Assembly: GCA_018394315.1 (NCBI GenBank)
Contig: CP074575.1
Location: forward strand, 558,001 to 622,000
DNA: 64,000 nt
Direction of reading: 5' to 3'
Source: Mycoplasmatota bacterium
GTDB lineage: Bacteria > Bacillota_I > Bacilli_A > MAG-NZ
Below the pieces are notes generated by a model. The model worked only from the letters and a program-made list of their open reading frames with translations, did not search any database and had not been told where the DNA came from. The translations under genes and the position numbers were made by a program. This document shows positions 16,262 to 31,334 of this stretch, piece by piece (position 1 is the stretch's first letter; each line of letters starts with the position of its first letter).

Positions 16262-17926
16262 ATGTACAAGTCAGATTTAGAAATTGCTCAAGAAGTTACT
16301 ATGAAGCCTATTTCGGAAATAGCTAGTAAGCTAGGATTAGGAGAGGATGACTTAGAGTTATATGGTAAATATAAAGCTAAGGTAAATCCAGATGTAAAAG
16401 TAGACAGAAATGGGAAAGTAATTTTGGTAACAGCAATTAATCCTACACCAGCTGGTGAAGGAAAAACTACAGTTACTGTAGGATTAGGTCAAGCATTTGG
16501 TCAATTAGGAAAGAATTCGATAATTGCATTACGCGAACCATCATTTGGACCTGTAATGGGTATTAAGGGAGGAGCAGCAGGAGGAGGATATTCTCAAGTT
16601 GTACCAATGGAAGATTTAAATCTTCATTTCACTGGTGATATTCATGCAATCACTACTGCAAATAATGCAATTAGTGCTATTCTTGATAATCACTTACATC
16701 AAGGAAACGAATTAAACATTGACCAAAGAAGAATAGTTTGGAAGAGATGCTTAGACATGAATGATCGAGCATTGAGATTTGTAAATGTTGGGCTAGGTGG
16801 ACACACAAACGGAATTCCTAGAGAAGATGGATTTAATATTACAGTAGCAAGTGAAATTATGGCCGTACTATGCTTAGCTAGTGATATCGAAGATCTAAAA
16901 GAAAGAATTAAGAGAATGGTTGTAGCTTATACTTTTGATAGAAAACCAGTAACAGTTGGTGACTTAGGTTGCGAAGGTGCAGTGACATTAATCTTAAAAG
17001 ATGCTATAAAGCCAAACTTAGTTCAAACATTAGAACACACACCTGCATTAGTACATGGTGGACCATTTGCAAATATTGCTCATGGATGTAATAGTATCAT
17101 CGCTACTAACCTGGGTAGAAAGATGGCTGATTATGTGATTACTGAGGCAGGATTTGGTGCTGATTTAGGTGCTGAAAAATTCTTAAACATAAAGACAAGA
17201 AATGCCGGTTTTTCTCCGAGTGCAGTTGTAGTTGTTGCGACAATTAGAGCATTAAAAATGCATGGTGGTGTAAATAAAAAAGAACTACAACCTGAAAATG
17301 TAGAAGCACTAAAATCTGGTATAGAAAACTTAGCAAAACACTTGGATTCAATTTCAAAATTTAATGTTCCTTATGTTGTAGCTATTAATAAGTTTGTAAC
17401 TGACTCAGATGCTGAAATTGCTTTTATTAAAGAATGGTGCGAAGAAAATGGTCACCCAGTAGAATTAATTGAAGTATGGGCAAAAGGTGGAAGCGGTGCA
17501 GTTAATTTAGCTGAAAGAGTTTTACAAAGAATTGAAGAAGCTGATGGTGTAAACACTTTTACCCATTTGTATGAACTAGATGAATCACTAGAAGATAAAA
17601 TTAATAAAATTGCTACTAACATTTATGGAGCTGATGGAGTTGAATTTACTTCAAAAGCTAAAACTCAATTAAGAACATTTAAACGTAATGGATGGGATAA
17701 ACTAGCTGTTTGTATGGCTAAGACTCCTGCATCATTAACTGATAATCCAAAACTATATGGTAGACCGAAAGGGTTCAAAATTACTGTAAGAGAGTTAAGA
17801 CCAAGTATTGGTGCGGGATTCATAGTTGCGCTAACTGGTGATGTTATGACAATGCCAGGACTTCCAAAACAACCTGCTGCATTAAGAATGGATGTAGTTG
17901 ATGGTAAAGCGGAAGGGTTATTCTAA
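16262..17926 (+). CDS. fhs: Formate-tetrahydrofolate ligase
   Basis: [46 protein letters not shown]. Confidence 0.98.
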
Positions 17927-17987: not shown

Positions 17988-18075
17988 ATTTTAATAAAGA
18001 AAATATTAATTATTCTTAATTGAGTAGTGATTCTTAACTTCAATTTCACCATGAAAGGTGTTTTTCAGTGATACA

Positions 18076-18090
18076 CGGATTTTCAATCCG
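18076..18090 (+). repeat. Array site 1 (CGGATT-TTC-AATCCG, perfect 6-bp inverted arms)
   Basis: gatacaCGGATTTTCAATCCG; preceded by CACC-atgaaa-GGTG hairpin at 18047-18060. Confidence 0.93.
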
Positions 18091-18170
18091 AGAAATGAAA
18101 AATATTTCCCAACCCTCGTAATATGAACTATTATACATGTGTTCCAATCATTATTAAATATACGACAATA

Positions 18171-18662
18171 CTAAATAAACTTTTCATAGGAAACTGCATA
18201 TTCTTTAAAGCCATTTCGTTCATATACTTTTTTAGCATTATTGTTCCACGAATAAACATGTAGTTTAACTCTATTAATTCCTCTTTCCTTCATCCACTTA
18301 ATTGATTCATCTAGTAGTCTTTGTCCTAATCCAAACCCTCTTGCTATATCATCTACATATATTTCGTCAAGTAACCCCATCATACCAGTTCCATTATCTG
18401 AAGTATCAACCTGTTGAAATATTCTACTCAGTGTATATCCTACAGTCTTTCCCTCTAATTCTGCAATCAATATCATTGTATTTTCACTTCGATTATTAAA
18501 CGTTACTTCAGCTTTTTTTTGTACTGATTTAACAACTAAATTGTAGTCATCATTTTTAGATTTATCAGTATGATTGTCTCGACTGAATTTACTTAGTTTT
18601 ACTGCAAAGTCAACAAACGTATTTTTGTCACTACATACCGCTTTTCTTACTATTACTTCCAT
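18171..18662 (-). CDS. GNAT family N-acetyltransferase (cassette cargo)
   Basis: IYVDDIARGFGLGQRLL acetyl-CoA motif, NNNAKKVYERNGF; GGAGG RBS. Confidence 0.88.
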   Translation of the reverse strand: MEVIVRKAVCSDKNTFVDFAVKLSKFSRDNHTDKSKNDDYNLVVKSVQKKAEVTFNNRSENTMILIAELEGKTVGYTLSRIFQQVDTSDNGTGMMGLLDEIYVDDIARGFGLGQRLLDESIKWMKERGINRVKLHVYSWNNNAKKVYERNGFKEYAVSYEKFI

Positions 18663-18770
18663 GATTTTATCCTCCGATTATACTTATTTCTAAAAGAATT
18701 CAATGAATAGTATATCACAATCAGAATAAAACACCTATAGAAGGTGTTATTTCATTAATCTGGAGACATA

Positions 18771-18784
18771 CGGATTTTCAATCC
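18771..18784 (+). repeat. Array site 2
   Basis: gacataCGGATTTTCAATCC; AACACCT-atag-AAGGTGTT hairpin about 25 bp to the left. Confidence 0.93.
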
Positions 18785-18801
18785 ATAAGTACTTATTAGA
18801 T

Positions 18802-19230
18802 TTATGTCCATTTTCCAATAAAATCAGCTTCATCTAAATCACTAGTTGTTATATACTCTAATTTAATTGCTTCTTCTATTGATAACAATGAATCATTAAT
18901 ATGCACAAAAATAGGTTGTCTATTTATCCAATCTGGATTACATCCAGCACTAGTAAAATATACCCATGTAATTCCATCTTTGACATATAATGGATGTTCC
19001 ATTCCTGCTTCGCAAGGTCCCCATTCATGTTCATATATTTCATAGCCAGCCAGAGTTTTACCCTTATTAAACAATAAGTATGAATTATCTGGAATCATAA
19101 CTGTCATACAGTCATAAGTATCATCATGTATACACTCTTGAATATAGTCTGGTAATGTATTAATTTTCACACTATCAGAAACACAACCAGATAATAACAT
19201 CAAAGTTACTAATACTAAGATACTCTTCAT
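18802..19230 (-). CDS. Hypothetical lipoprotein (cassette cargo)
   Basis: Signal peptide with lipobox LSGC; GGAGGAG RBS. Confidence 0.78.
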   Translation of the reverse strand: MKSILVLVTLMLLSGCVSDSVKINTLPDYIQECIHDDTYDCMTVMIPDNSYLLFNKGKTLAGYEIYEHEWGPCEAGMEHPLYVKDGITWVYFTSAGCNPDWINRQPIFVHINDSLLSIEEAIKLEYITTSDLDEADFIGKWT

Positions 19231-19254
19231 AATTGCTCCTCCTTTATAGACACA

Positions 19255-19268
19255 CGGATTTTCAATCC
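19255..19268 (+). repeat. Array site 3
   Basis: gacacaCGGATTTTCAATCC. Confidence 0.93.
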
Positions 19269-19340
19269 AATCATTACTGTATTATATGTCATCATAAAAA
19301 TAGTTATCTAGGACATCATATATGCAAACCATGATGACAG

Positions 19341-19919
19341 TTAACGTTCAACTGGTAGTGATCCATGATTTTTATCATTTTTATAGTATGTAGTAATTTC
19401 AATCACTAGGAAACAAATAAGAACTATATCTCTAATAACAATTATTAAATTTGTACTTGCATACATAGTTACCGTAATACCTATAGCGCTTACAAAAATA
19501 AACAATAAAGTAATTATCCCGAATATACCAGATATTAATATAACATTATTTTTAGAATATTTATAATTTAATATATAAGCAACCAATACAAATAACAGAT
19601 CAAAAAACAAATATACAATACTGAAAATAGGAAGTACATCTTCAACAAAAATTTCAACAGAAAAGAAACTTGCCAAGAAAACTTTAATGACTGAAGATAG
19701 AAAAGCATAAACTAAAGGAAGCAAAAATAATAAAGCAATCCTTTTGGGATTTCCTAATTCTATAGTATAAATGGTTAATGAAATAAAAAACAACATACTT
19801 ACTAAGAATACATAAAAATAAAATTGACCCGTTGTTAATACAAAGCCATCTGTTAATGCAAAGCCATCTGATAATGCAAAGCCATCTGAGTTAAGTCGAT
19901 AAAAAAATAGAAAATTCAT
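19341..19919 (-). CDS. Hypothetical multi-pass membrane protein (cassette cargo); true start may be an in-frame ATA at 19967
   Basis: Several hydrophobic segments; AGGAGG lies 5 nt upstream of the in-frame ATA. Confidence 0.72.
   Translation of the reverse strand: MNFLFFYRLNSDGFALSDGFALTDGFVLTTGQFYFYVFLVSMLFFISLTIYTIELGNPKRIALLFLLPLVYAFLSSVIKVFLASFFSVEIFVEDVLPIFSIVYLFFDLLFVLVAYILNYKYSKNNVILISGIFGIITLLFIFVSAIGITVTMYASTNLIIVIRDIVLICFLVIEITTYYKNDKNHGSLPVER
19833..19886. repeat. Three tandem 18-bp in-frame repeats
   Basis: TGTTAATACAAAGCCATC / TGTTAATGCAAAGCCATC / TGATAATGCAAAGCCATC encoding DGFALS-DGFALT-DGFVLT. Confidence 0.9.
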
Positions 19920-20011
19920 TATAACACTGACAATAATTATCGCTAAGAAGAATAATTTACCTTTTATAAGTACCTCCTATAAATAGTATTTTAATTTTAA
20001 TGAACGACTTA

Positions 20012-20025
20012 CGGATTTTCAATCC
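20012..20025 (+). repeat. Array site 4
   Basis: gacttaCGGATTTTCAATCC. Confidence 0.93.
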
Positions 20026-20066
20026 TATTAATCCATTTTAGGTGCTTTAATACAAGGTTTAGTAAT

Positions 20067-20600
20067 TCAGCTTTCTTCCGAAATCTTTGTATAATGGTAG
20101 TTATTCGGTATTCTGATAAACCCTCTTATATGGTTGTCCTTTTTTCTCTCAACAATACCAGATACATTATTTATATTACCTTCTGCTGTGATTAAAGTGT
20201 CTATTTTGTTCTCTAAAACTATTCCTATATGGTCATGAGGTTGATTACAAAATACCTCATTATAGAGAACTATATCTCCTTTTTCAGGTGTGAATTTTCT
20301 ATTATTAGAAAAGTAAAATTTATTTTCAGGAAGGCTTGCCCATAACTCCCATGCACTACAGCCTGCAAAGTTACAAACCACTTTTTCGTCAGGATATTTT
20401 ACTGGCAAAGTAAACCCTGTTTTGATACAACAATAATAAACAAATGCAGCACACCACTTATTATCCCAGTTTTCTAAAGTCCACTTTGGGAACAAGTCTG
20501 CAATTGGTCCTATATTTGATTTAATCCCCATTACATTTCCATAAAAACTTTTCTGTGCTTCTTGTTTTGCGATTAGAGCTAATCTCTCTCTTTTTGTCAT
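20067..20600 (-). CDS. CHAP/NlpC-P60-like cysteine amidase domain protein (cassette cargo)
   Basis: WCAAFVYYC, PEKGDIVLY, DHIGIV, TAEGN; start at MTKRER after GGAGG. Confidence 0.8.
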   Translation of the reverse strand: MTKRERLALIAKQEAQKSFYGNVMGIKSNIGPIADLFPKWTLENWDNKWCAAFVYYCCIKTGFTLPVKYPDEKVVCNFAGCSAWELWASLPENKFYFSNNRKFTPEKGDIVLYNEVFCNQPHDHIGIVLENKIDTLITAEGNINNVSGIVERKKDNHIRGFIRIPNNYHYTKISEES

Positions 20601-20656
20601 TTTTCCTCCTACACTAAAATTTCGTATATTATATATAAGACTGTAACCAAGACACA

Positions 20657-20670
20657 CGGATTTTCAATCA
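20657..20670 (+). repeat. Array site 5 (1 mismatch)
   Basis: gacacaCGGATTTTCAATCA. Confidence 0.9.
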
Positions 20671-20811
20671 ATTACTTTCTATTCTTACTGACACCAAACC
20701 TTGGATTCCTATGTATAACATCATTATTGTTATAAACCCTTCTTGTTCAATAATAGCCATAATTATACAGAAAATGTAAGCTGTCTGAAAAATATTTTTA
20801 ATAACATTCAT
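20668..20811 (-). CDS. 47-aa hydrophobic small protein, not in the ORF track; sole content of the smallest unit
   Basis: AGAGGGAG RBS, ATG, MNVIKNIFQTAYIFCIIMAIIEQEGFITIMMLYIGIQGLVSVRIESN; TGA stop overlaps site 5. Confidence 0.6.
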   Translation of the reverse strand: MNVIKNIFQTAYIFCIIMAIIEQEGFITIMMLYIGIQGLVSVRIESN

Positions 20812-20828
20812 TTTCTCCCTCTAACATT

Positions 20829-20842
20829 CGGTTTTTCAATCC
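20829..20842 (+). repeat. Array site 6 (1 mismatch)
   Basis: aacattCGGTTTTTCAATCC. Confidence 0.88.
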
Positions 20843-20845
20843 CTT

Positions 20846-21151
20846 TTAGTCCTTAATGACTGCAGGTTCTTTTATAAAATACCTAATTGCCAAGTATAGA
20901 ATTATTATTATTGTATTATGCATAAACCACTGACTAATTAGGCTCCCAAAGTTCGTAACAATCACATAAACAGCATTCCACCATATTTCTTCCCTTATTA
21001 TTTCAGCATAAAAATTAATATGGTCCGTGAAGAAAAATATTAACTTTGTAATAGTTAAAACATTTACGATAGTAAAATAAACAATTAGAAACCTTTTTAA
21101 ATGTCTTTCTGAAGACAAAAATGCTTTAAAAGAAGACTTGATTCTTTCCAT
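20846..21151 (-). CDS. Small membrane protein, array paralog family
   Basis: Two hydrophobic segments; resembles ORFs at 23768, 24134 and 24597. Confidence 0.75.
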   Translation of the reverse strand: MERIKSSFKAFLSSERHLKRFLIVYFTIVNVLTITKLIFFFTDHINFYAEIIREEIWWNAVYVIVTNFGSLISQWFMHNTIIIILYLAIRYFIKEPAVIKD

Positions 21152-21252
21152 ATAACCCTCCCGTTTGAATTCTATAAATAGTATATCACAACAGTACTGT
21201 CGAATAAAGGAAGAAAAAAATTCACTGTAAGTTCAGTGAATTATATGTATAA

Positions 21253-21266
21253 GGGATTTTCAATCC
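21253..21266 (+). repeat. Array site 7 (1 mismatch)
   Basis: tatgtataaGGGATTTTCAATCC; TTCACTG-taagtt-CAGTGAA hairpin at 21221-21240. Confidence 0.9.
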
Positions 21267-21274
21267 TTAGTAAT

Positions 21275-22012
21275 TTACATATACCATAGTAATTTATTAT
21301 CCATTTTCTTTCCGATTTTACTTTTTTGTTCGATAACTTTCCATTTATCATTTTCTTTTACGACTTTGTAAACCGCATTTGTTCCATCTGATTTCTTAAA
21401 AAGTATATACGCATTATTACCATTAATAAGAGTCACAGGATTTGTAAAATTCTTATATGGCGGTTTCAAATCAGGATTCAATACATTAACTACAATGTCT
21501 AAAGCAATATCACTGAGTGAAGAATATTCTTTATGTTTTTCAGCAAGGAATAATAATTGATCAAATGAGTATTTGCTATATGTGTCTAAATCTAAGTTAA
21601 ATGACTGCTTTATATCCTTGATTATTTCAGAAGAAAATTCCAATATTAATTTTTCATACTCATCACCTAGATGGTCGTATTCTAATAGCTCTACTCCAGA
21701 TGGACTAACACTAAAAGTTATTGTCTCTATACCATATGGTGGATTATGAGCATGTTCAAAGGTACGAACCTTTACTTCTACCTCAAAGCTATAACCACTC
21801 ACTCTTTTAATATCTAAATCGACACTATATAGCATTAGTTGTTTATTGTAACCATAGTAATTAGAAATTTCTTCTCTAATATATGGATAAAGTGTAGTTA
21901 TTAAAGTATCATATACATCCTTATATTTAGGTTCTTGGTTAGTAGCATTGGTCGTTATTTGTGTTGCTATTATACTTAATATTAAAACTAAGATTACAAT
22001 TATTTTTTTCAT
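21275..22012 (-). CDS. Secreted DUF3888-like protein (cassette cargo)
   Basis: Signal peptide; LYPYIREEISNYYG...VKVRTFEHAHNPPYGIETITF resembles DUF3888 (recalled, not searched). Confidence 0.65.
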   Translation of the reverse strand: MKKIIVILVLILSIIATQITTNATNQEPKYKDVYDTLITTLYPYIREEISNYYGYNKQLMLYSVDLDIKRVSGYSFEVEVKVRTFEHAHNPPYGIETITFSVSPSGVELLEYDHLGDEYEKLILEFSSEIIKDIKQSFNLDLDTYSKYSFDQLLFLAEKHKEYSSLSDIALDIVVNVLNPDLKPPYKNFTNPVTLINGNNAYILFKKSDGTNAVYKVVKENDKWKVIEQKSKIGKKMDNKLLWYM

Positions 22013-22140
22013 TATTAATCATCCTTAATGTATTTATTAATAGTATTTTTTACTTTGATAGAAAAAACAATTCATCCAATATTCACAAAATGTCCTTCAT
22101 AAAAAAAATTCACTAAATTTACAGTGAATTATCAGCACAA

Positions 22141-22154
22141 CGGATTTTCAATCC
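22141..22154 (+). repeat. Array site 8
   Basis: gcacaaCGGATTTTCAATCC; AATTCACT...AGTGAATT hairpin at 22107-22130. Confidence 0.93.
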
Positions 22155-22166
22155 CAATATTTATAC

Positions 22167-22409
22167 TTAGGAGTTTTTTTTATTAATGGCTTTTAACAAT
22201 TCAATAATAACACCGAGAGCAATTAGTAATATTCCGCTAATGAAACCTGAAAACCAAGTTGATAATGTTACGATAAAACTCTCAGAATACAAGCCTAATA
22301 ACATCCCACCAAAAAAGGTAATAATTAATATGCCATATCCACTGGAGTTTAATATTTTTTCAATGTTATGCTTTACCTTTTCTTCAAAATTTACATCCTT
22401 GTTTTCCAT
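22167..22409 (-). CDS. Small two-TM membrane protein (cassette cargo)
   Basis: AAGGATG RBS-like site; hydrophobic; C-terminal GILLIALGVIIELLKAI. Confidence 0.72.
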   Translation of the reverse strand: MENKDVNFEEKVKHNIEKILNSSGYGILIITFFGGMLLGLYSESFIVTLSTWFSGFISGILLIALGVIIELLKAINKKNS

Positions 22410-22514
22410 AATAAATCATCCTTTCTCCTAAAAAATAGTAAACACTATAAGTATTGTAACATGACACTTTTTTTTAAAAAGAATAACCACATAGCCACTG
22501 AATTACATGTATAA

Positions 22515-22528
22515 CGGATTTTCAATCC
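22515..22528 (+). repeat. Array site 9
   Basis: catgtataaCGGATTTTCAATCC. Confidence 0.93.
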
Positions 22529-22564
22529 TATGCTATGCAATGTTTATCTGATAATCACACTCAG

Positions 22565-23176
22565 TTATTGATTCACTTCATAGTTTGAATCAACTAATAT
22601 CATGTAATCTTTATCATTCCTAAATCTTTTTTTCATAAATTTAATAAGTTCTTGTGTCCAACCTTCTTTTTCAGCCATGTCATCAATTTGAGCAACTGAA
22701 AACAAATAACGCATAACTCCATTCTCTAAGACTACTTCAAGTGCAGATGATGAAACAACTTCATAATCAGCTGGATCAAATGGAGTTTCTGTACAATCTT
22801 TAGCTATCACTTTATTATCTTTCACTGCAGTTATACAGTAAAAATTATACTGAGATCTTGCGTTATGTATAAAATTAATAATATAATTATGTGGCCACAT
22901 ACTATCATTAGTCCTGCTTGACCCATAATAAAAATAATATGTCACCTTGGTATCCTCTAGAGTCATAAAGGGATTATCATCTTCTAAATAAACAGTATTA
23001 ATAGAAACTCTCCTATATAAATCATAACTCTCAGTATCAAAATTTGATATATCATCAAAATTGGTATACTCTCTCCACATAGACTTTCCACCAGTAAATA
23101 ATGAGGGACACAGTAAAAAAATAATAGTTGTTAAAGTAAGTAAAATTCCTAAACCTAAAAGTAATACTTTTTTCAT
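22565..23176 (-). CDS. Hypothetical exported protein (cassette cargo)
   Basis: AGGAG RBS, MKKVLLLGLGILL signal/anchor. Confidence 0.72.
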   Translation of the reverse strand: MKKVLLLGLGILLTLTTIIFLLCPSLFTGGKSMWREYTNFDDISNFDTESYDLYRRVSINTVYLEDDNPFMTLEDTKVTYYFYYGSSRTNDSMWPHNYIINFIHNARSQYNFYCITAVKDNKVIAKDCTETPFDPADYEVVSSSALEVVLENGVMRYLFSVAQIDDMAEKEGWTQELIKFMKKRFRNDKDYMILVDSNYEVNQ

Positions 23177-23260
23177 GTACTCACTCTCCTTAATGACATT
23201 CTTGAAATAGTATACCATAAGTAGATAAAAACACCTATCAAAAGGTGCCTGATTGACATA

Positions 23261-23274
23261 CGGATTTTCAATCC
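23261..23274 (+). repeat. Array site 10
   Basis: gacataCGGATTTTCAATCC; CACCT-atcaaa-AGGTG hairpin to the left. Confidence 0.93.
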
Positions 23275-23294
23275 TATTACTATTCTTACTTAGT

Positions 23295-23639
23295 TTACTC
23301 CTTCAATTTTTTTTTTAGCAAGGTAAGAAAGATTATTACTGCCGGTGCTATACTGAAGATTATTCTATAATCAAGGATATTAAAATAGAAAAGTACAGCA
23401 GAAAGAACAATTAATGATATTTCTAACCTTTGTTGAAGAATCTCAAATTTAAGTCTATTAACGCTCATACTATCTAGTTGTTCTGTTTTCCAATAGCCTT
23501 TTTTATATATAAAAAATATCCAACTTACAATTAAAAACATTATAGTGAATGATCCTAATTTAGGTGCATTTAATATAATAATAATTGAAACTATATTAAG
23601 GAAAATAAAATCCAATATCCTAACAACTTTCTCATTCAT
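23295..23639 (-). CDS. Hypothetical membrane protein (cassette cargo)
   Basis: GGGGGTG RBS, four hydrophobic segments. Confidence 0.7.
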   Translation of the reverse strand: MNEKVVRILDFIFLNIVSIIIILNAPKLGSFTIMFLIVSWIFFIYKKGYWKTEQLDSMSVNRLKFEILQQRLEISLIVLSAVLFYFNILDYRIIFSIAPAVIIFLTLLKKKLKE

Positions 23640-23727
23640 AATGTTCACCCCCTGTATTCTATTAACAGTAAACATATTCAAAGAATAACACATATAAAGG
23701 TGTTATTGTCATAATTCTAGAGACACA

Positions 23728-23741
23728 CGGTTTTTTAATCC
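23728..23741 (+). repeat. Array site 11 (2 mismatches)
   Basis: gacacaCGGTTTTTTAATCC; AATAACAC...GTGTTATT hairpin to the left. Confidence 0.85.
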
Positions 23742-23767
23742 TAATCGCAATAACCACTTTTATCCTA

Positions 23768-24052
23768 TTAATCTTTGTTCCACAAAGTCAATCTAATAGA
23801 AATAAGTAAATAGACACCTATAATAGTAAATACATGTTTTATCCACGCAGATAGTAAGCCAGTAGTTGAAACTAGTAAACCATAGACTAGTACATCACTC
23901 ATATGACCTATTGATAACAATCCTTCTACAATAAAAGAAATAAAAAGCACTAGGTAGATAATGTTAATTAACCAAAAATAAATCCAGATTAACTTTATTA
24001 ATTTATGATTTGATTCTAAGAAACTAAAAAAATTTTCTCTTGCTCTTTCCAT
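23768..24052 (-). CDS. Small membrane protein, array paralog family
   Basis: GAGGAGG RBS; MERARENFFSFLESN...SAWIKHVFTIIGVYLLISIR. Confidence 0.78.
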   Translation of the reverse strand: MERARENFFSFLESNHKLIKLIWIYFWLINIIYLVLFISFIVEGLLSIGHMSDVLVYGLLVSTTGLLSAWIKHVFTIIGVYLLISIRLTLWNKD

Positions 24053-24094
24053 AGAATACCTCCTCAATAAATAAAACAAATAATTATTAAAACA

Positions 24095-24108
24095 TAGTTC
24101 GTCAATCC
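24095..24108 (+). repeat. Degenerate array site between two paralogs
   Basis: aacaTAGTTCGTCAATCC at the expected position, about 25 bp from the stop of the 24134 gene. Confidence 0.5.
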
Positions 24109-24133
24109 TAATTAGCAATAAAATTTTTTTTTA

Positions 24134-24409
24134 TTAATCTTTGTTCTTTAAATTGATTCTAATAGATATTAGTAAATAAACACCTATGATAGTTAACATA
24201 TGCTTTATCCATGCCGATAAAAAAGCTAGTATTGAATGTGCTAATTGATGACCTAAAAGAGAATCCCAAGATGAAAATCTTGCGATAAAAGAAAGAACAA
24301 AAAGTGCTAAGTATATAATAGTAATTACCAAGAAATAAATCCATACTAGTTTCAACAATTTTTCATTTGATTCCACCACGCTAAATATATACTCCTTTAC
24401 TCTTTTCAC
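24134..24409 (-). CDS. Small membrane protein, array paralog family
   Basis: GGAGTG RBS and GTG start; SAWIKHMLTIIGVYLLISIR nearly identical to the neighbouring paralog. Confidence 0.78.
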   Translation of the reverse strand: MKRVKEYIFSVVESNEKLLKLVWIYFLVITIIYLALFVLSFIARFSSWDSLLGHQLAHSILAFLSAWIKHMLTIIGVYLLISIRINLKNKD

Positions 24410-24504
24410 AAAATCACTCCCATAAATTAAGCATTCTATAAACAGTATATCATATGAAAATCATAACACCTATATAAGGTGTTATTCTATTATCTAACGA
24501 TACA

Positions 24505-24518
24505 CGGCTTTTCAATCC
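24505..24518 (+). repeat. Array site 12 (1 mismatch)
   Basis: gatacaCGGCTTTTCAATCC; ATAACACCT-atat-AAGGTGTTAT hairpin to the left. Confidence 0.9.
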
Positions 24519-24533
24519 TTAGTTATCTATACT

Positions 24534-24562
24534 TTGACTACTCCAAGTTCAAATGATACTAT
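24534..24562 (+). promoter_or_regulatory. Sigma-A-like promoter of the inverted cassette gene
   Basis: TTGACT-17 bp-TACTAT with TG upstream of the -10. Confidence 0.55.
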
Positions 24563-24596
24563 TAGAATATATATGTAAACAGAAGGGAGTTAATAA

Positions 24597-24896
24597 ATGA
24601 TGAAGTATATAATCAAGATACTTGAATCAAATGAAATTATGAAAAAAGTATTATTGTTCTATGTATTGCTTTTTCTAATGTTTTCAGCTTGGTATATTAT
24701 ACATCATTTCAGAGAATACCAAATTGTAATAGAACAAATAAATTCAAGTCCTTATAATAGTTCTCTGAGTAACCTTAATTATCATTACAAATACGATATC
24801 ATTTTGCCTCACATTAAAACATGGATATTAAATATCTTTGGTATTATAGTTGTTTACTTACTTATATCAATTAGGGAAAAGCTTAAAACAATATAA
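24597..24896 (+). CDS. Small membrane protein, distant array paralog, inverted orientation
   Basis: ILESNEIMKK and IIVVYLLISIR shared with the family; GGGAG RBS. Confidence 0.75.
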   Translation: MMKYIIKILESNEIMKKVLLFYVLLFLMFSAWYIIHHFREYQIVIEQINSSPYNSSLSNLNYHYKYDIILPHIKTWILNIFGIIVVYLLISIREKLKTI

Positions 24897-24901
24897 ATTA
24901 G

Positions 24902-24928
24902 AAATCTCCTTTGTACAGGAGATTTTTT
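24902..24928 (+). terminator. Terminator of the inverted cassette gene
   Basis: AAATCTCCT-ttgtac-AGGAGATTTTTT. Confidence 0.75.
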
Positions 24929-24937
24929 ATTAACACA

Positions 24938-24951
24938 CGGATTTTCAATCC
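24938..24951 (+). repeat. Array site 13
   Basis: aacacaCGGATTTTCAATCC. Confidence 0.93.
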
Positions 24952-25216
24952 CATGTTAGGAATAAAAACTTCAAATCTGTGTATAAAATATTTCAGGTGT
25001 TGAGGTGATGCATATGTATAAAAAAAGGACAAGTGTTCAAGAAGAACATCTAGTCCATCAGTAAAGAAATTTAGATGATTAAACAGTTATTTTATATTTC
25101 TAAAATATTATTTCTCAAAGAAACTTTCATATCCATAATCTAAATTAATAATCTTAACTTATATTATTACAACAGAACCAAGAAAAGTTGGTTCATACCA
25201 TTTTCGTTATCCTTTC

Positions 25217-25735
25217 TTATTCTTTACATCTCTCTGTTTCATAACTAAAGCCACGAGTTACTTCAGTTGTTACGCTTCTTAAAATCAATGATAGTAGCTC
25301 CTCATCATAGCTTTCAATAACAAATGATTCAGGAGAAGTTGAAACCATATGAATAGAATCATGTTCGACATTAAAATATACATAAACTCTTCTTAGACTA
25401 GAATTATATATAACATCCACTCTTATATCATATGGATTATATCCAATACGTTTTACAATTGAATTATCAAAATCTACAATGAGTGATTCTAAGAAATCCT
25501 CTACAATTCCTTTAAGTTCATAATTATATAAATTTGGATCATCAATATCTTCATTCGGTGAAACACATTCATTCATTATTACTGATTTTGAAACTTCGGG
25601 GTAATCTATAGTTACTGCAAGTATTTCCATACTCGAAAGATCTTTTATTGGATTATTGTCGTTTGAGTTTGCTTTGTACCCAATATAGACAAGTATCAAA
25701 ATTAACAATAAAGAAATCTTTAAGTTTTTTTTCAT
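25217..25735 (-). CDS. Hypothetical exported protein (cassette cargo)
   Basis: GAGG RBS, MKKNLKISLLLILILV anchor. Confidence 0.7.
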   Translation of the reverse strand: MKKNLKISLLLILILVYIGYKANSNDNNPIKDLSSMEILAVTIDYPEVSKSVIMNECVSPNEDIDDPNLYNYELKGIVEDFLESLIVDFDNSIVKRIGYNPYDIRVDVIYNSSLRRVYVYFNVEHDSIHMVSTSPESFVIESYDEELLSLILRSVTTEVTRGFSYETERCKE

Positions 25736-25869
25736 TATAGTCCTCACCTTTATAAAAGTTTATCCCCTTATGTGTCATTATAGCATAAAATAGTATTTAA
25801 CTTGATTAAATCTATGATAAAGTAAAGGAAGAAAAAATTCACTGTAAATACAGTGAACTATATGTATAA

Positions 25870-25883
25870 CGGATTTTCAATCC
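25870..25883 (+). repeat. Array site 14
   Basis: tatgtataaCGGATTTTCAATCC; TTCACTGT-aaat-ACAGTGAA hairpin to the left. Confidence 0.93.
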
Positions 25884-26158
25884 TATGCATTGCTACTAAT
25901 ATGAAAAAAATGTAGTAGTCATTATGATGCTATTTTAAGTCTTTTTCCTTACAAAGCTAAAGAACACAGAAACTTAGGAGTGAACAACTTACTAAACACT
26001 TTTAACAGTAAAAGAAAAAGACCTCCTACACTAAACAGAAGAAGATGAGAAATCTACATTACATTAGTTTATACATAAAAATTCGACAAGAGAAATTCAA
26101 CTTAACTGCTACGATAAAGGAAACCTTAGTAGTGGACAAAATTAGAAGGAGTATATAA

Positions 26159-26608
26159 ATGAGAAAATTCTTTATAATCGTTGTTGTAGGAGGAATCACT
26201 TTATATTTATTTTCTTATCTTATTTTTACTAATTATAATATATCAAATGATAATATACCTAAAAGAATTCCGTTTGAAGATGTAGAGAAAATTACTATAG
26301 TAGATTATTATGCTTACTCCAACGGTACACGAATTTATAGAGTAGAACCATCGCAAACAGATGAACTGATAAAATATCTCAAGAAACTAAAATACCCTCT
26401 TTCGTATGTGGAAGCAGGTACAGCAATAATAAGTCGGTTCCAAGTAAGATTAGATATTGGAGAAAAACATGATATACTTTTCGATCCTGTTTCAGGATTC
26501 ATACAATATCGAAATAAAAACTTGGAAGGGAAAAATTTTTACTATGCTAATTTTGATAGAGAAAAATACGATCTGCTAATTAAGGAGATTATAAATAAGG
26601 TGGAATAA
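26159..26608 (+). CDS. Hypothetical exported protein
   Basis: AAGGAG RBS; N-terminal hydrophobic anchor. Confidence 0.72.
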   Translation: MRKFFIIVVVGGITLYLFSYLIFTNYNISNDNIPKRIPFEDVEKITIVDYYAYSNGTRIYRVEPSQTDELIKYLKKLKYPLSYVEAGTAIISRFQVRLDIGEKHDILFDPVSGFIQYRNKNLEGKNFYYANFDREKYDLLIKEIINKVE

Positions 26609-26695
26609 AATGAAAAGAATGTTTTAATGATATTTACACTTCTTACATTCACCCCTCATTATTATGCATCGGGATAGTACTAAAACATTTTACAA

Positions 26696-27253
26696 CTATT
26701 TTAAGTTAAAATACTTCTTAATTCGTCTTGCTGTATCTATTGCTGATAAATTTGAATTGTCAATTCTAATATAATTTTGATAAGGGATCTCTTTTTCGTT
26801 GGACACAAGTCTATACTTATTCATTGAACTTATCAATTCTTTACTAGACCATTCAGTATTCCTTTTGGTCCATTTTTTATTTAATCGATTATCAGTAATA
26901 TTTCTTGCAAGTCTAGTCTCAACGTCCGCGTTAAGCTCAACAAAATGAATCTTGTGATTTTCAAAAATAGCACATATATGCTTAATATAATCCCAGTCTG
27001 ATTTCATGTCGAATGCCCAAACAAATGTAAATATCATTCCTTTTTGGTTGCTTTTGGACATTTTGATCATTATTTCGTCTCTAAATAGTCTTATTAATTC
27101 TTGAGCTTCCTTTGTTTCATAATCAAATATTTTAAGGACAAGATCAATCGTCATGTGATTATGAAATAATTTTAGTCCGGTTAGTTTACTTAACTCTTCT
27201 CCTACGGTCATTTTGCCTACCGCTTGAGGTCCAAATATTATTACCAAATCCAT
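26696..27253 (-). CDS. P-loop nucleotide-kinase-like (shikimate kinase-like / AAA) protein
   Basis: IIFGPQAVGKMTVG Walker A, LFHNHMTID. Confidence 0.8.
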   Translation of the reverse strand: MDLVIIFGPQAVGKMTVGEELSKLTGLKLFHNHMTIDLVLKIFDYETKEAQELIRLFRDEIMIKMSKSNQKGMIFTFVWAFDMKSDWDYIKHICAIFENHKIHFVELNADVETRLARNITDNRLNKKWTKRNTEWSSKELISSMNKYRLVSNEKEIPYQNYIRIDNSNLSAIDTARRIKKYFNLK

Positions 27254-27399
27254 CTCATCACATCCTTATTTAATCACAATTGTAATTGATTAAGAGGTTT
27301 ATGTCAATGAATCATAAGACAAACTAGCTTCACTTACTAAAGAAAACACCAATTTTCAAATTAGTGTCTTAATATACATTTTTTTCTTTTAGCAACATA

Positions 27400-27413
27400 A
27401 GATCTTTCAATCC
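27400..27413 (+). repeat. Degenerate array site
   Basis: acataAGATCTTTCAATCC, 9 bp from the stop of the 27423 gene; AAAACACC..TAGTGT hairpin remnant to the left. Confidence 0.6.
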
Positions 27414-27422
27414 GCAAACAGA

Positions 27423-28154
27423 TTATTTATTATTAAGTATCTGTTGATAATCACTAACAATATCTTTAATGTTTTGACTTTGTCCTTCTAGTGGTTTATT
27501 AATATCGTAACCACTTAGCTCGACTGATTTATAACTATAATAGAAGTTACCATCCTGATTTCTCGGATCAGTATTTCTTTCAGCCTCTTCGCTATCTACA
27601 AACCCTCCCAAAAACAAGTATACTTCATCAACCAAAATTTCCTTATCCTCAAGACATAGATCTGATACGTATACACCTGGATATTCAACACTTCGAGGTA
27701 TTTGCAACTCATTACTTAGTTTAGAATCACCTAATAAATCATTAATAAATGTAATTGAATACCTATACTTATCTATCAGTGGGCTATGATCTTCATTAAG
27801 TATGCTAAATTCCCTAATTTCTTTTAATTCATCTACTCTAGCTATAAAAATATTTTCACTCCATCCAACAACTGCCACATTATCTTCAAGACTAAATGCG
27901 CAATCACCATGCAATCCTAATCCAACATATTTTAAATATAGTGGGGTTGCGTTAATATATAATCCGGTAGTTAAAATTGTCAGTAGAAGTATATATACAT
28001 ATTGTAAGCGAAATTTTTTTTTATGTAGTAGTGTATCTCCAAATGATTTTTGTTTCTTTATAATGTCGTTTTCAAGTTTAACTCTTCTATATGTTAGATA
28101 ACTCATTATAATTATAACAGTAATCAGTAAAATCAATAAATATTTAATAATCAT
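27423..28154 (-). CDS. Hypothetical membrane-anchored protein, coupled to the LytTR gene
   Basis: Two N-terminal TM segments; starts 1 nt after the LytTR gene stop. Confidence 0.72.
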   Translation of the reverse strand: MIIKYLLILLITVIIIMSYLTYRRVKLENDIIKKQKSFGDTLLHKKKFRLQYVYILLLTILTTGLYINATPLYLKYVGLGLHGDCAFSLEDNVAVVGWSENIFIARVDELKEIREFSILNEDHSPLIDKYRYSITFINDLLGDSKLSNELQIPRSVEYPGVYVSDLCLEDKEILVDEVYLFLGGFVDSEEAERNTDPRNQDGNFYYSYKSVELSGYDINKPLEGQSQNIKDIVSDYQQILNNK

Positions 28155-28155
28155 T

Positions 28156-28488
28156 CTACTCTACCCCTTTTCTAATATATTTTTTAAACTGTTTAATGTA
28201 AGTTCTATTAACATATAAACTTATATCATTAACAACCTTCAATTTAATTCTAGAATTCCATTGTTGACTCACGCCTATTATCTTTGTAATGTTTATAATA
28301 TGTGATTTACTGATCTGTATAAATTTTGAGTCAGCAAGTGTTTTTTCAAGCTCGTATAGCTTAAAATCAGTTTTTAATTTTCCAAAAGAACCAACTAAAA
28401 AAACATCATTATTATCGGATTCAAAATATATGACATCATCTGCTTCAACTTCGTGTGATCCTCTATGTTTTTTACCTACAATGATCAT
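28156..28488 (-). CDS. Stand-alone LytTR DNA-binding domain protein
   Basis: DVIYFES, KLYELEKTL, FIQISKSHIINI, VNRTYIKQFK. Confidence 0.85.
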   Translation of the reverse strand: MIIVGKKHRGSHEVEADDVIYFESDNNDVFLVGSFGKLKTDFKLYELEKTLADSKFIQISKSHIINITKIIGVSQQWNSRIKLKVVNDISLYVNRTYIKQFKKYIRKGVE

Positions 28489-28778
28489 AAAATTCCTCCC
28501 ACTCACTTACTTATAATTAACTGTAAATATTATTTTAAAACATTATATGTATCTTTGATGATTAATAACAATCTTATTAACTAACATTATTCTACTAATA
28601 CTAAAATAGAAATACTACTATTTGATGGTATCTTACATCAAAAATATTCTCCAAAGAAAGGAAGTAGATAAATATCTACTCCCTCTATATATTAATATTC
28701 ACATGTTTTAGGTCAAATAGACTCACAGGGATTAAAAACAAAAAGTCTATGATAAGTCTTTCGCTTCATTTACTCTTG

Positions 28779-29249
28779 TCAAGAGAGTATCGTTATTAAT
28801 CGAAAGATTTGAAACAAAAAGAAAGCAATTGATATTATAAGTATAGATTTTCTGACATTTTTCTTATTACTATTTATTTTAGGGATAATCAAATAAGCAA
28901 ACATAACAAAAGATGGTATTAATATAAGGAACAATAAGATATTAGTAACTGTAAAATTAACTGTATTTGAGACTTCTCCGAACTCTAATAGAAAGCGACA
29001 GCCCATTCCAATTGCTGTTGTAAATAGTGTTAATAAAAACACTTTAATATAACTTTTTTTTAACAAACCCGTAAAAATTAATGAAATAAATGAATAACCA
29101 ATAATGATTGTAAACATATATGAATAGTCATCGGGTTTCGTAAGTATTCTAAAGGGGAACATAAAAGTACCATTAAACACTAAATATACCAATGTTATAA
29201 ACCAAAATAATTTTTCTTTTTTTCTAATTGACTCATATAAATTATCCAT
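28779..29249 (-). CDS. Hypothetical membrane protein
   Basis: AAGGAAG RBS; multiple TM segments; GCRFLLEFGEVS motif. Confidence 0.7.
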   Translation of the reverse strand: MDNLYESIRKKEKLFWFITLVYLVFNGTFMFPFRILTKPDDYSYMFTIIIGYSFISLIFTGLLKKSYIKVFLLTLFTTAIGMGCRFLLEFGEVSNTVNFTVTNILLFLILIPSFVMFAYLIIPKINSNKKNVRKSILIISIAFFLFQIFRLITILS

Positions 29250-29319
29250 TATTATTTCTTCCTTTCACCGAATACAAATTGCTACTTATCGTTCATCCAG
29301 AAAATCAATTATTAAAACA

Positions 29320-29333
29320 AAGATTTTCAAACT
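29320..29333 (+). repeat. Possible highly degenerate array site
   Basis: AAGATTTTCAAACT (10/14 to consensus), preceded by AATTATTAAAACA as at the 24095 copy. Confidence 0.35.
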
Positions 29334-29600
29334 GTCATTAGCGTTATTCTAGAAAACAACTATGACTAATTGTTAGATTTAAATGTCAGTAACTTTATAA
29401 TCACTAAAATATAAGTTTCAATTCTATTGATTAAAAAAACATCAGGTTATTTATCTAAAATATTATGCTGGAATAACTATAAAAGTAGCAAAAGCAATGA
29501 ACAGTACACCAGACAAAATCACGAGTAACTTGCTTGTTTTATTTTGGTAACTGACTATTCCATGTATCAATTGAATTAATCCAATCCCTACTAACTATAT

Positions 29601-30056
29601 TTAATTGTATAAAACCTTAGAAACGAAGAATCCTGGAACTTTTACATCTCCATAATGTTGAAGAACTGGGCATAATCCGAAGCCCATTTTCTTCCATAAT
29701 TTTAGCATTGCTGTTTTATCTTTTGAAGACCAAGATCTAATTTGATAAATTGTTACATCTTTTTCGACTCGACTTATTGCTTCTTTAATTAATTGAGACG
29801 CAACTCCCTTAGTTCTGAATGGCTCAAGAACTTCAATGTTGTCAATGTAAGCCTCCACAGTATTTTCAAATGGTTCATCCATTTTTCTATAATATACTGA
29901 AATAATCCCCATCATTTCAGTATTTTTTTCTGCTATAATTGACCAGCCGTCAGAAATCCTAATCACTTCATCATTAACTTTGTCAGTCCAATTTGAATAG
30001 TTCATCCATTCTCTCTTAATTTCTTCATTCACTTCAATAAACTTGATGTCTTTCAT
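29601..30056 (-). CDS. GNAT family N-acetyltransferase
   Basis: IEVLEPFRTKGVASQLI, LWKKMGF; GAGG RBS. Confidence 0.82.
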   Translation of the reverse strand: MKDIKFIEVNEEIKREWMNYSNWTDKVNDEVIRISDGWSIIAEKNTEMMGIISVYYRKMDEPFENTVEAYIDNIEVLEPFRTKGVASQLIKEAISRVEKDVTIYQIRSWSSKDKTAMLKLWKKMGFGLCPVLQHYGDVKVPGFFVSKVLYN

Positions 30057-30146: not shown

Positions 30147-31262
30147 TTATTTTAGTTTGATTACCCTTTCCATCCTATCCAAAGCTTCTTTTAGTGAATC
30201 ATAATCTATGGCACATGATATTCTAATGTGATTTTCAAAATCACCAAAACAAGTTCCAGGAATAACCGCAACTTTTTCTTTTTCTAATAGATCATAGAAT
30301 AGCTTTTCGGAATGATATGGAACCTCAGGGAAAATGTAATATGTTCCGTTTGGCTTAACAACATTTAATCCCATTTTTATTAATCTATTGTATGCATACT
30401 CAACATTCTTCTTATAGTAATTTATTCTTTCTGATATATCACAATCAATTTCAGTTGCTGCATACTGAGTGATTGTATTAACTGCTACTACTACATATTG
30501 ATGAACCTTCATAATAGACTGAATGATTTCTCTTGAAGCTAACACATATCCTATTCTCCATCCAGTTAGTGAATGTGATTTTGATAATCCATTTATAATT
30601 ATTATTTTATCTTTTACACTTGGATCCACTATGGATTTAAAATCGTCAATCATTATTCTATTATATATTTCATCTAAGATAACATATATATCATGTTCTT
30701 TTAATATCTTTTTGATATCCTCAATACTTTGTGAATCTAAACTTACCCCAGTTGGGTTATTTGGGTAATTTAAGATAAGACATCTAGTCTTACTAGTTAT
30801 ATGTTTTTTTAAGTTATTATACCTAATTTGAAAATCATCGATACTTGTATCCATAAAGATACTAACTGAATTATTTAAAGTAACTAATGGTGAATATCCT
30901 GTATATGCAGGAGTAGGAATTATTACTTCATCATCTGGATTAAGCAATGCTGCTAAAGTTGATGATAGAGCTTCAGTAGAACCCACAGTAATCATTATTT
31001 CATCCATACCGTAATGTTGATTAAAATATTTTTTTACGTAATTTAAAATGCTTTTCTTAGTATCTACTCTACCCTCGCTTAGGACGTACTTATAATCGTT
31101 GTTTTCAATTGCAAATATAGCAGCGTTTTGAATATCTTTTGGTGGTGCAAAGTGAGGTTCCCCGATTGTTAGTTTGATAATGTTATCATATTTCATTGCT
31201 TCAATATTAAAATGACGAATCATAGGGAATGCAATTTTAGATAGGTTATTATTTGTTTTCAT
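30147..31262 (-). CDS. PLP-dependent class I/II aminotransferase (PatA-like, possibly N-acetyl-DAP aminotransferase)
   Basis: LTIGEPHF, PNNPTG, DEIY, GLSKSHSLTGWRIG; divergent from dap genes. Confidence 0.88.
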   Translation of the reverse strand: MKTNNNLSKIAFPMIRHFNIEAMKYDNIIKLTIGEPHFAPPKDIQNAAIFAIENNDYKYVLSEGRVDTKKSILNYVKKYFNQHYGMDEIMITVGSTEALSSTLAALLNPDDEVIIPTPAYTGYSPLVTLNNSVSIFMDTSIDDFQIRYNNLKKHITSKTRCLILNYPNNPTGVSLDSQSIEDIKKILKEHDIYVILDEIYNRIMIDDFKSIVDPSVKDKIIIINGLSKSHSLTGWRIGYVLASREIIQSIMKVHQYVVVAVNTITQYAATEIDCDISERINYYKKNVEYAYNRLIKMGLNVVKPNGTYYIFPEVPYHSEKLFYDLLEKEKVAVIPGTCFGDFENHIRISCAIDYDSLKEALDRMERVIKLK

Positions 31263-31334
31263 ATGCTCTCCTTTAAGTAAATAATAATCTGACAAGGTAA
31301 CACAAATGTTATTTAGTGCGTAAAATAATAAGAA

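Follow-up and report, generated by a model that had tools for sequence, protein, structure and literature searches.

How did a run of short, unrelated genes come to stand between two conserved genes of a Mycoplasmatota bacterium, each set off from the next by the same short repeat in the same orientation? The locus lies in a 64-kb window (GenBank assembly GCA_018394315.1, contig CP074575.1, positions 558,001 to 622,000; coordinates below are window positions unless a genome position is named), between fhs, which encodes formate-tetrahydrofolate ligase, and an aminotransferase gene. An earlier note on this DNA had proposed an integron-like array of excisable one-gene cassettes delimited by a 14-bp repeat. 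From the analysis reported here, we judge it likely that the array is a stack of small, mostly one-gene mobile cassettes joined by a 21-bp recombination site derived from tRNA-Phe. The best reading is that these cassettes are integron-like and move by site-specific recombination, with the crossover in the equivalent of the anticodon loop and a recombinase acting in trans. The source genome is a single contig of 2,165,257 bp with ~30% G+C, from an order of eight species genomes that all belong to one family. It was compared chiefly with Mycoplasmatota bacterium WC44 (CP134881.1), of a different genus, and with a 55% complete draft from its own genus.

The repeat, CGGATTTTCAATCC on the forward strand, occurs nine times without mismatch in the window, always on the plus strand, a result matched by none of 100 dinucleotide-preserving shuffles of the window. 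With up to two mismatches the count rises to 15, against 0.47 expected. Fourteen of these form a co-oriented series from 18076 to 25883, in agreement with the nine perfect and five imperfect copies (one or two mismatches) of the original description; the other is a stray match at 56083. Three further, degenerate copies in that description did not hold up. Scored with a weight matrix of 22 positions, built from the sites of the relative only, the sequences at 24095, 27400 and 29320 reach 5.2, 9.8 and 5.5 bits, values equalled or exceeded at 136, 40 and 118 genome positions, respectively, and they are at or near chance level for a 12-kb region. Across the whole genome there are 18 copies at up to one mismatch, 13 of them in the array. 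Among the five outside it, one is the tRNA-Phe gene, the sole exact copy beyond the array, and the others are confined to a few islet-like places. The operator-like, genome-wide scatter that had been named in advance as a sign against cassettes is not what the whole-genome scan shows.

Read on the strand of the genes, the motif is GGATTGAAAATCCG, usually followed by TRTGTC. The only tRNA-Phe(GAA) gene of the genome (genome 696172-696247) lies 110 kb from the array. In it, GGATTGAAAATCCGTGTGTC covers positions 29-48, the anticodon stem-loop and variable loop, and the motif plus TGTGTC is identical to these positions. This anticodon-arm identity of the site, which the earlier note missed, assigns the system to the tyrosine-integrase elements that target tRNA genes, and it directs attention to a candidate recombinase in a relative. 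In a k-mer profile over all tRNAs of the genome, the tRNA-Phe segment stands at 14 copies. Smaller excesses at the anticodon arms of tRNA-Trp (six copies) and tRNA-Gln (four), and at tRNA-Ser and tRNA-Arg 3' ends, resemble the scars that islands commonly leave.

An alignment of 132 sites defines the block more closely. Conservation runs from -1 to +20 with sharp edges on both sides, as A-GGATTGAAAATCCG-T-RTGTC, and the flanking positions carry A at -1 in 94 sites, T at +15 in 126 and C at +20 in 109. The core site is 21 bp, A-GGA-TTGAAAA-TCC-GTRTGTC. Such a block could also act mainly as a signal in RNA or for transcription, with the anticodon stem-loop mimicked in 3' untranslated regions (UTRs) to serve, for example, processing, stability or decoy functions, with shuffling left to homologous recombination of leaders of ~90 nt. 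The alignment speaks against this: none of the three stem pairs shows a compensatory change in the 132 sites, and pair 31-39 is non-pairing in 28 of them and a G-T wobble in one more. The predicted DNA hairpin is weak (-2.6 kcal/mol, with a palindrome of 3-5 bp), and an Rfam search of positions 17500-30500 at E values up to 1 returned no match. On these grounds a duplex core site, in which short inverted repeats (GGA/TCC) flank a 7-bp overlap (TTGAAAA), fits better than a selected RNA or single-strand fold.

The units between sites have a regular build. The 14 robust sites of the window delimit 13 intervals of 172-932 bp, 11 of which contain one minus-strand open reading frame (ORF). The interval 24505-24938 has a plus-strand ORF, and 23728-24505 has two paralogous ones. 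Cutting the source genome, the same-genus draft and WC44 at their sites gave 116 inter-site units. Among the 96 units of up to 1.2 kb, 84 hold exactly one ORF (at least 45 aa), the largest ORF lies in the tRNA-sense orientation in 87, and stop codons stand a median of 28 nt ahead of the next site. The site's own TGA serves as the stop in five units; ORFs ending on it, in GGATTGA or the variant TGATTG, were seen at window 20668-20670 and in at least four WC44 units. In order, a cassette consists of a half-site, TRTGTC, an optional leader of ~70-90 nt, a ribosome-binding site (RBS), the ORF, a tail of ~30 nt and the next half-site. The leader, shared by many cassettes at 70-90% identity, begins with a terminator-like hairpin with a T-run, continues into TGnTATACTATTTATAGAAT, and carries an extended -10 box, TGnTATACT. 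Other cassettes lack it and have the RBS directly after the site. Of the 68 WC44 cassette ORFs, 49 have no Pfam match.

Several of these features would suit a signal in RNA. The site is always in sense orientation just past stop codons, terminator-like hairpins (eight, against 1.6 expected) and promoter-like boxes stand in the shared leaders, and the leaders are at times swapped independently of the ORFs. Leaders at 18690-18770, 21160-21252 and 23180-23260, like those of the WC44 arrays, share an extended -10-like box and a near-palindrome, TATACTATTTATAG. The exact form of the latter has only three copies in the source genome (one each in the window, behind tRNA-Phe and close to fragments of tRNA-Ser), and 297 kb of WC44 array DNA contain 20; it may be a common operator for cassette expression. 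Leader hairpins of WC44 also house an IS3-family element with two ORFs and an element encoding a 460-aa transposase, whose copies, ~99% identical, split the AACACC...GGTGTT stems (loci L032, L033 and L024; C1:1736-1750 kb and 988 kb).

By all-against-all blastn the units fall into 13 cassette families represented in more than one array or genome, with new neighbours at every occurrence. The window is connected to WC44 by families B, C, F and M, and both order and neighbours differ between the two. The family B cassette at 22515-23274 is 84-89% identical in nucleotide sequence to three WC44 cassettes in two other arrays. In the four-way alignment (84-98% identical) homology extends from the left site into the right site and the flanks cannot be aligned; a search of genome contigs with its protein found two loci only, both in WC44. 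Three cassette pairs are 98-99% identical inside and have unrelated flanks, although flank identity is a noisy measure (random 100-mers give 48 +/- 13%) that is read only alongside direct views of the junctions. At these junctions site position 1 goes with the upstream unit, and positions 11-14 plus TRTGTC go with the downstream unit, which puts the exchange within positions 2-10, the anticodon-loop equivalent. The units are discrete and stand in new contexts, chimerism at their junctions falls within the 14-mer, and the site matches the tRNA exactly.

Related genomes agree with this picture at the locus itself. In WC44 only 1.5 kb separate fhs from the aminotransferase gene, and this interval contains an unrelated gene of 416 aa and no site; in the same-genus draft a 446-aa gene follows fhs and no motif occurs just downstream of it. 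With two relatives lacking an array at fhs, the 12-kb array is specific to this locus of the source genome. The earlier note had held that the same content and order in relatives, or breakpoints away from the motif, would count against its proposal. Homologous cassettes turned out to be reordered elsewhere and the homology breakpoints to fall inside the 14-mer, and the recurrence and breakpoints together support integron-like one-gene cassettes joined at a short site. The same junctions weigh on the signal explanation, since they lie inside the 14-mer and upstream of the leader; moreover, an integrase-bearing element in a tRNA gene uses this same site for attachment. We regard it as very unlikely that the motif is mainly an RNA or transcription signal.

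If the cassettes move by site-specific recombination, which enzyme might act on them? As the earlier note had it, no tyrosine recombinase or integrase is encoded in the window, and no serine recombinase was found in the source genome. Its suggestion to look for recombinases next to motif copies bore fruit in WC44, at tRNA-Phe, and failed beside the tRNA-Phe gene of the source genome. In WC44 this gene is followed, on the opposite strand, by the gene for Int287, a 287-aa tyrosine integrase (PF00589). Beyond Int287 come a 308-aa ORF, a helix-turn-helix (HTH) gene, a 254-aa ORF and then two site-bounded cassettes. The 308-aa ORF has a weak match to Rep_trans (PF02486; 28.2 bits, below the 29.6 cut-off), and the Int-Rep-HTH element measures 3.6 kb. 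At this locus, c2, the cassettes are followed by two displaced 3' halves of tRNA-Phe, and the 3' end of a decayed integrase lies behind the first of them. Identity between the tRNA-Phe gene and its displaced copy begins exactly at G29, which makes this an instance of the anticodon-centred class of tRNA integration as described in PMC4383910.

In size Int287 resembles Xer enzymes. Among NCBIfam models it matches those of the XerA/XerC/XerD type best, under their cut-offs; the integron-integrase models TIGR02249 and NF011946 give it 74.7 bits (cut-off 265) and 39.7 bits (cut-off 435), respectively. Pfam recognizes the catalytic domain only (residues 108-270), and homologues have SAM-like N-terminal domains. 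The size suggests an enzyme that needs only a simple core site. Homologues with 60-63% identity exist, for example in the zrk1 genome. The nearest homologue in the source genome is 37% identical, a 301-aa tyrosine integrase (Int301) at tRNA-Trp. It belongs to a 7.2-kb island (C1:718-7982) that has a complete tRNA 3' half at its boundary and also encodes a Viral_Rep-type Rep (PF02407, E=5.7e-13) and an HTH_3 regulator. The cargo of this island includes a ubiquitin-like module (Multi_ubiq, a ThiF/DUF6791 E1-like protein and DUF6527) and a DJ-1/PfpI protein, and a second, truncated integrase lies at C1:19-600. Right behind the tRNA-Phe gene of the source genome, at genome 696.2-700.8 kb, is a small stack that lacks an integrase and whose sites stand at 697368 and 697590. 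Two degenerate tRNA-Phe 3' halves, from anticodon arm through acceptor stem and with identical downstream sequence, occur at C1:667305 and 668472, 28 kb upstream of the gene and in its orientation, an unusual layout for displaced 3' fragments. The region 657-700 kb also contains tRNA-Ser and tRNA-Trp fragments and an integrase.

Full elements of this kind invite a simpler account, in which the arrays are fossil accretions: decayed Int-Rep elements stacked at anticodon-arm sites, in the manner of cis-mobilizable elements (CIMEs), with no independent mobility of the cassettes. Full elements do exist at WC44 tRNA-Phe (3.6 kb) and source-genome tRNA-Trp (7.2 kb), the decayed integrase end behind a displaced tRNA half at c2 reflects real tandem accretion, and streptococcal elements are documented to accrete and to decay into CIMEs (PMC5704250). 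The large arrays look different. No Int or Rep remnants were found by tblastn inside the window array or WC44 arrays c3, c5 and c6, and in c4 the only matches lie more than 16 kb past the last site. The remaining matches are next to tRNA genes or outside arrays, and remnants appear only at c2, c8 and near tRNA-Trp. The prevalence of single-ORF units also tells against decay, and nearly identical cassettes with unrelated flanks would require repeated exact deletion to one gene followed by duplication elsewhere. Integrase-bearing elements, moreover, carry the whole tRNA 3' half, by which the gene is restored, whereas cassettes carry positions 29-48 only. Fossil accretion alone is, in our estimate, unlikely.

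The Rep genes suggest another route, single-strand rolling-circle capture, in which HUH-type Reps (Rep_trans-like, Viral_Rep) would nick the site hairpin and move the cassettes. Both integrase elements encode a Rep, at the match strengths given above, and the site includes a 5-bp palindrome. The two Reps, however, are of different families while the integrases are homologous, tblastn detected no Rep near the arrays, and targeting of a tRNA anticodon with an identity block is a known signature of tyrosine integrases (PMC4383910). We therefore consider rolling-circle capture extremely unlikely.

The scheme that we favour is recombination by a tyrosine integrase. An Xer-like simple integrase, whose normal target would be the anticodon region of tRNA-Phe, would bind the inverted repeat GGA/TCC, the equivalent of the anticodon stem, and exchange strands within the 7-bp equivalent of the anticodon loop. 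Because all sites are direct repeats, any unit could be excised as a one-site circle and re-inserted at any other copy of the site, so that cassettes would be shuffled within and between arrays. Cassettes that carry the tRNA only up to position 48 could not restore a tRNA-Phe gene that exists in one copy, and they would last only where the site is displaced or secondary, which would place arrays away from the tRNA gene. With no cognate integrase at its tRNA-Phe, the array of the source genome may be served in trans by Int301 of tRNA-Trp, or by an incoming element, or may currently be immobile. The recombinase (Int287 or a relative), the circular intermediates and the seeding at non-tRNA loci are parts of this scheme that we infer from sequence.

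A number of observations weigh against the scheme. The source genome has no integrase adjoining tRNA-Phe and no Int287 orthologue (best match 37-40% identical), and only one genome, WC44, and one locus connect Int287 with cassettes. The scheme does not account for the seeding of the array between fhs and the aminotransferase, far from the tRNA gene. Excision and insertion are inferred from a comparison of three genomes, in which no excised circle, empty site or strain-level polymorphism turned up, and the nearest genome compared has an fhs identity of 92%. Site conservation inside the 14-mer is partly circular, given that sites were gathered by likeness to it; the unbiased positions are the flanking ones. 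The sense orientation of the site in presumptive 3' UTRs leaves room for an added RNA-level role, which it may have. In families E and K the ORF is common to the members and the leader is not, which implies that a second process, probably homologous recombination in the conserved leaders, also reshuffles parts.

A second type of site in WC44 bears on what determines the partner of a cassette. This genome holds 70 copies (up to one mismatch) of the tRNA-Trp anticodon arm, GGTCTCCAACACC, interleaved and co-oriented with the Phe sites, for example at C1:124-146 kb, 833-860 kb, 1514-1559 kb and 1619-1628 kb. The Trp-type sites have a conserved left arm, TATGTGTCGTTTC, which is not tRNA-Trp sequence and contains GTGTCG like the right arm of the Phe site. 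Several WC44 units of 2-3 kb begin as a composite of a Phe site, ~37 nt and a Trp site. As the Phe and Trp anticodon stems are near-identical (CGG-N / N-CCGT) and the loops differ, the comparison suggests that the 7-bp overlap, not the enzyme, would set the cassette type. The leader hairpin AACACC...GGTGTT might also be connected with the Trp site (…CAACACC…).

How widespread is the arrangement? WC44 holds 91 Phe-type copies at up to one mismatch (55 exact) in about seven co-oriented arrays with about 90 one-gene units; the largest array has 43 sites at up to two mismatches. Phe and Trp sites together number ~160 and, as a rough estimate from coordinates, span ~150 kb or ~6% of the genome. The same-genus draft has six copies (up to one mismatch) over two small contigs. 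In a sample of 401 genomes of the class, only the source genome (10) and WC44 (55) exceed three exact copies. The GGACTG variant of the anticodon arm reaches at most one copy per genome in 201 genomes. A metagenome scan with the array-specific pattern GGATTGAAAATCCGTHDKWC matched 102 stretches, none with a co-oriented array of cassette spacing, a result that concerns further arrays by that pattern alone; 94 of the 102 have one copy of the 14-mer at up to one mismatch. Two of the metagenome loci, L118 (1347-2798) and L055 (1151-2278), show 14-mer clusters with ~29-nt spacing in both orientations, unlike cassette arrays and possibly an unrelated family of short tandem or inverted repeats. Blastn of window positions 18000-25900 against plasmid and phage collections returned no match.

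The individual features of the window array show the cassette plan in detail. The conserved left flank, fhs (16262..17926, plus strand; Pfam FTHFS, E=2.6e-267), has orthologues 81-92% identical in family genomes, and a terminator scan places its terminator-like hairpin at 17953-17986. The array reads on the minus strand, so its last site in gene orientation, S14, is the leftmost. Past S14, the sequence at 17990..18075 (minus) is a terminal leader, with TGTATC and then an AACACC...GGTG hairpin and no cassette gene after it. S14 itself (18076..18089, minus; exact GGATTGAAAATCCG, 31.3 bits) is followed to the right by a gene for a 163-aa GNAT acetyltransferase (18171..18662, minus; PF00583, E=6.4e-17). 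Site S13 (18771..18784, minus) is exact and leads into TATGTC, a hairpin and the promoter-like box TGATATACT. Next lies a gene for a 142-aa putative lipoprotein (18802..19230, minus) with an LSGC motif and no Pfam match; it has no leader of its own, and its RBS stands 10 nt past S12. The exact site S12 (19255..19268, minus) continues as TGTGTC, giving the same 20 bases as the tRNA. The 192-aa membrane protein encoded at 19341..19919 (minus) represents family F, with WC44 array homologues at 44-59% amino acid identity and 73% nucleotide identity to WC44 across the whole cassette.

After the exact site S11 (20012..20025, minus) comes a CHAP-domain amidase gene (20067..20657, minus; PF05257, E=1.3e-7). 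Its listed GTG start overlaps S10, and the probable ATG start lies near 20600 behind GGAGG. S10 (20657..20670, minus) has one mismatch (TGATTG...), and its first bases, TGA, are the stop codon of a 47-aa ORF at 20668-20811. That ORF occupies a 172-bp cassette bounded by S9 (20829..20842, minus; one mismatch, 18.9 bits). A gene for a 101-aa membrane protein without Pfam match (20846..21151, minus) precedes S8 (21253..21266, minus; one mismatch), which opens a type-B leader of TTATAC, a ATTCACTG...CAGTGAAT hairpin and a T-run. The 245-aa secreted protein with a DUF3888 domain (21275..22012, minus; PF13027, E=3.6e-18) is 67% identical in its C-terminal part to one on a same-genus array contig. 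Between the exact sites S7 (22141..22154, minus) and S6 (22515..22528, minus) lies the gene for an 80-aa membrane protein of family M (22167..22409, minus), 69% identical in amino acids to a cassette of WC44 array c6. Family B is represented by a 217-aa secreted or membrane-anchored protein (22565..23218, minus). The exact site S5 (23261..23274, minus) follows, with TATGTC, a hairpin and the box TGGTATACT.

A gene for a 132-aa membrane protein (23295..23693, minus) separates S5 from S4 (23728..23741, minus; two mismatches, 27.9 bits). The two paralogous genes for small membrane proteins (23768..24409, minus; 23768-24118 and 24134-24409) share the C-terminal IIGVYLLISIR. The weak site-like sequence at 24095 lies between them, and a third paralogue occurs at genome 981.6 kb next to another site. 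S3 (24505..24518, minus) has one mismatch (position 11, T to G). The gene on the opposite strand (24597..24896, plus) encodes a 99-aa membrane protein that, by eye only, shares the C-terminal LLISIR of this pair. The exact site S2 (24938..24951, minus) is followed by the gene for a 176-aa secreted protein of family C (25217..25747, minus), 71-72% identical in amino acids to proteins of WC44 arrays c1 and c6. S1 (25870..25883, minus), exact and with a type-B leader, is the first robust site in gene orientation. Most of the small membrane and secreted proteins of the window array have no Pfam family.

From 25884 to 30146 (minus) the island appears older or less certain, with only the weak site-like sequences at 27400 and 29320. 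Its ORFs are 26159-26608 (plus), 26696-27253 (AAA_18-like), 27423-28154, 28156-28506 (LytTR), 28779-29249 and 29601-30056 (GNAT). Genes of the 26-30 kb segment have homologues within or next to arrays elsewhere, and a homologue of 27423-28154 abuts a site in WC44 array c4. The module 27423-28506, which encodes the LytTR DNA-binding protein and a 243-aa membrane protein, is duplicated at C1:699704-700769 with 81-83% amino acid identity, 3.5 kb downstream of the tRNA-Phe gene. Pfam thus backs the GNAT, CHAP and DUF3888 assignments of the earlier note (GNAT at both positions) and adds LytTR. A class I/II aminotransferase gene (30147..31295, minus; PF00155, E=8.2e-57) forms the conserved right flank.

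How, then, does this array relate to systems already known? A literature search, whose coverage left out subscription journals, found no description of such arrays. Anticodon-targeting genomic islands offer one comparison, and the system proposed here would have its chemistry in common with them. Class A islands of the Islander collection, as described in PMC4383910, share the anticodon crossover, an identity block from G29 3'-ward and a displaced tRNA 3' half at the island end. The integrase element of WC44 has this form, a tRNA gene and a displaced co-oriented fragment with identity from the anticodon; the cassette sites are internal fragments. Islander units are at least 2 kb and each has an integrase, with tandems of three or more in four cases among 3919 islands (PMC4383910). 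The units here differ: they are 172-1200 bp, lack an integrase and fill arrays of up to 43 sites away from the tRNA gene, the window units measuring 172-932 bp and lying 110 kb from tRNA-Phe.

CIMEs of the integrative conjugative and mobilizable elements of Firmicutes are att-flanked units without recombination genes, lying beside and depending on a small element with an integrase and a rolling-circle Rep or relaxase (PMC5704250). WC44 c2 offers the same arrangement, in the order Int element, site, cassette, site, cassette, displaced tRNA half, so that att-flanked units without integration or transfer genes adjoin a same-att element. That source describes CIMEs as multi-kb elements that sit at a single target gene and have decayed; the arrays here comprise ~100 single-gene units at many loci, and the large ones show no decay remnants. 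Tycheposons of Prochlorococcus (10.1101/2020.12.28.424599) and the additive flexible islands of Alteromonas (PMC4898812) likewise combine a tyrosine recombinase and a replication module at tRNA genes with scattered partial tRNAs. They also have plug-in cargo cassettes that are near-identical in divergent genomes, tRNA-Phe included. Their units, as these sources describe them, are operon-sized and anchored at the tRNA gene, with no account of single-gene cassettes that have a minimal 21-bp site and form arrays elsewhere. The likeness of the Int, Rep, HTH and cargo elements of WC44 and the source genome to tycheposons is one of architecture alone. The rAID-1 clusters of Bacteroidales, called integron-like in 10.1101/471110, likewise have an Xer-like recombinase of the XerD family, long co-oriented arrays of small genes and a repeated intergenic motif. 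They belong to another phylum, with another repeat, immunity-gene cargo and a recombinase heading each cluster in that account. The site here is a tRNA mimic, and most arrays have no recombinase.

Integrons are the textbook system of single-gene capture and essentially a Gram-negative feature. Like them, the arrays described here are long, co-oriented and built of cassettes that mostly hold one ORF and turn up again in other arrays. A recombinase is absent from the vicinity of some arrays, the cargo consists mostly of unknowns with GNAT acetyltransferases and small enzymes, and the WC44 integrase is divergent from the cassettes. An adjacent IntI-type integrase is absent, the window having no tyrosine recombinase and Int287 scoring far below the cut-offs. 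The attC sites of integrons are folded structures of 57-141 bp. By inspection, the site here has none of their imperfect palindromes of tens of bases, as the earlier note had said; it is a duplex-type tRNA-arm core of 21 bp with a palindrome of 3-5 bp. Many cassettes have their own promoter-like leader, and the conserved part of the site opens the cassette on its 5' side and does not follow the ORF. We give somewhat less than an even chance to the broader claim that this is a second, independently evolved integron-type capture system, in which Xer-like integrases on small Int-Rep elements would use 21-bp anticodon-arm mimics as universal sites in cell-walled Mycoplasmatota. If so, it would be one of self-promoted single-gene cassettes free to hop among many chromosomal arrays. 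In a host that is a poorly known free-living relative of mycoplasmas, such a system may explain several per cent of a genome and much strain-specific gene content, and it would offer a natural recombination site of very small size (~21 bp) together with a simple enzyme as its candidate recombinase. The comparison suggests an integron-like outcome reached by another route: a tRNA-targeting integrase, a minimal anticodon-arm site and cassettes with their own promoter.

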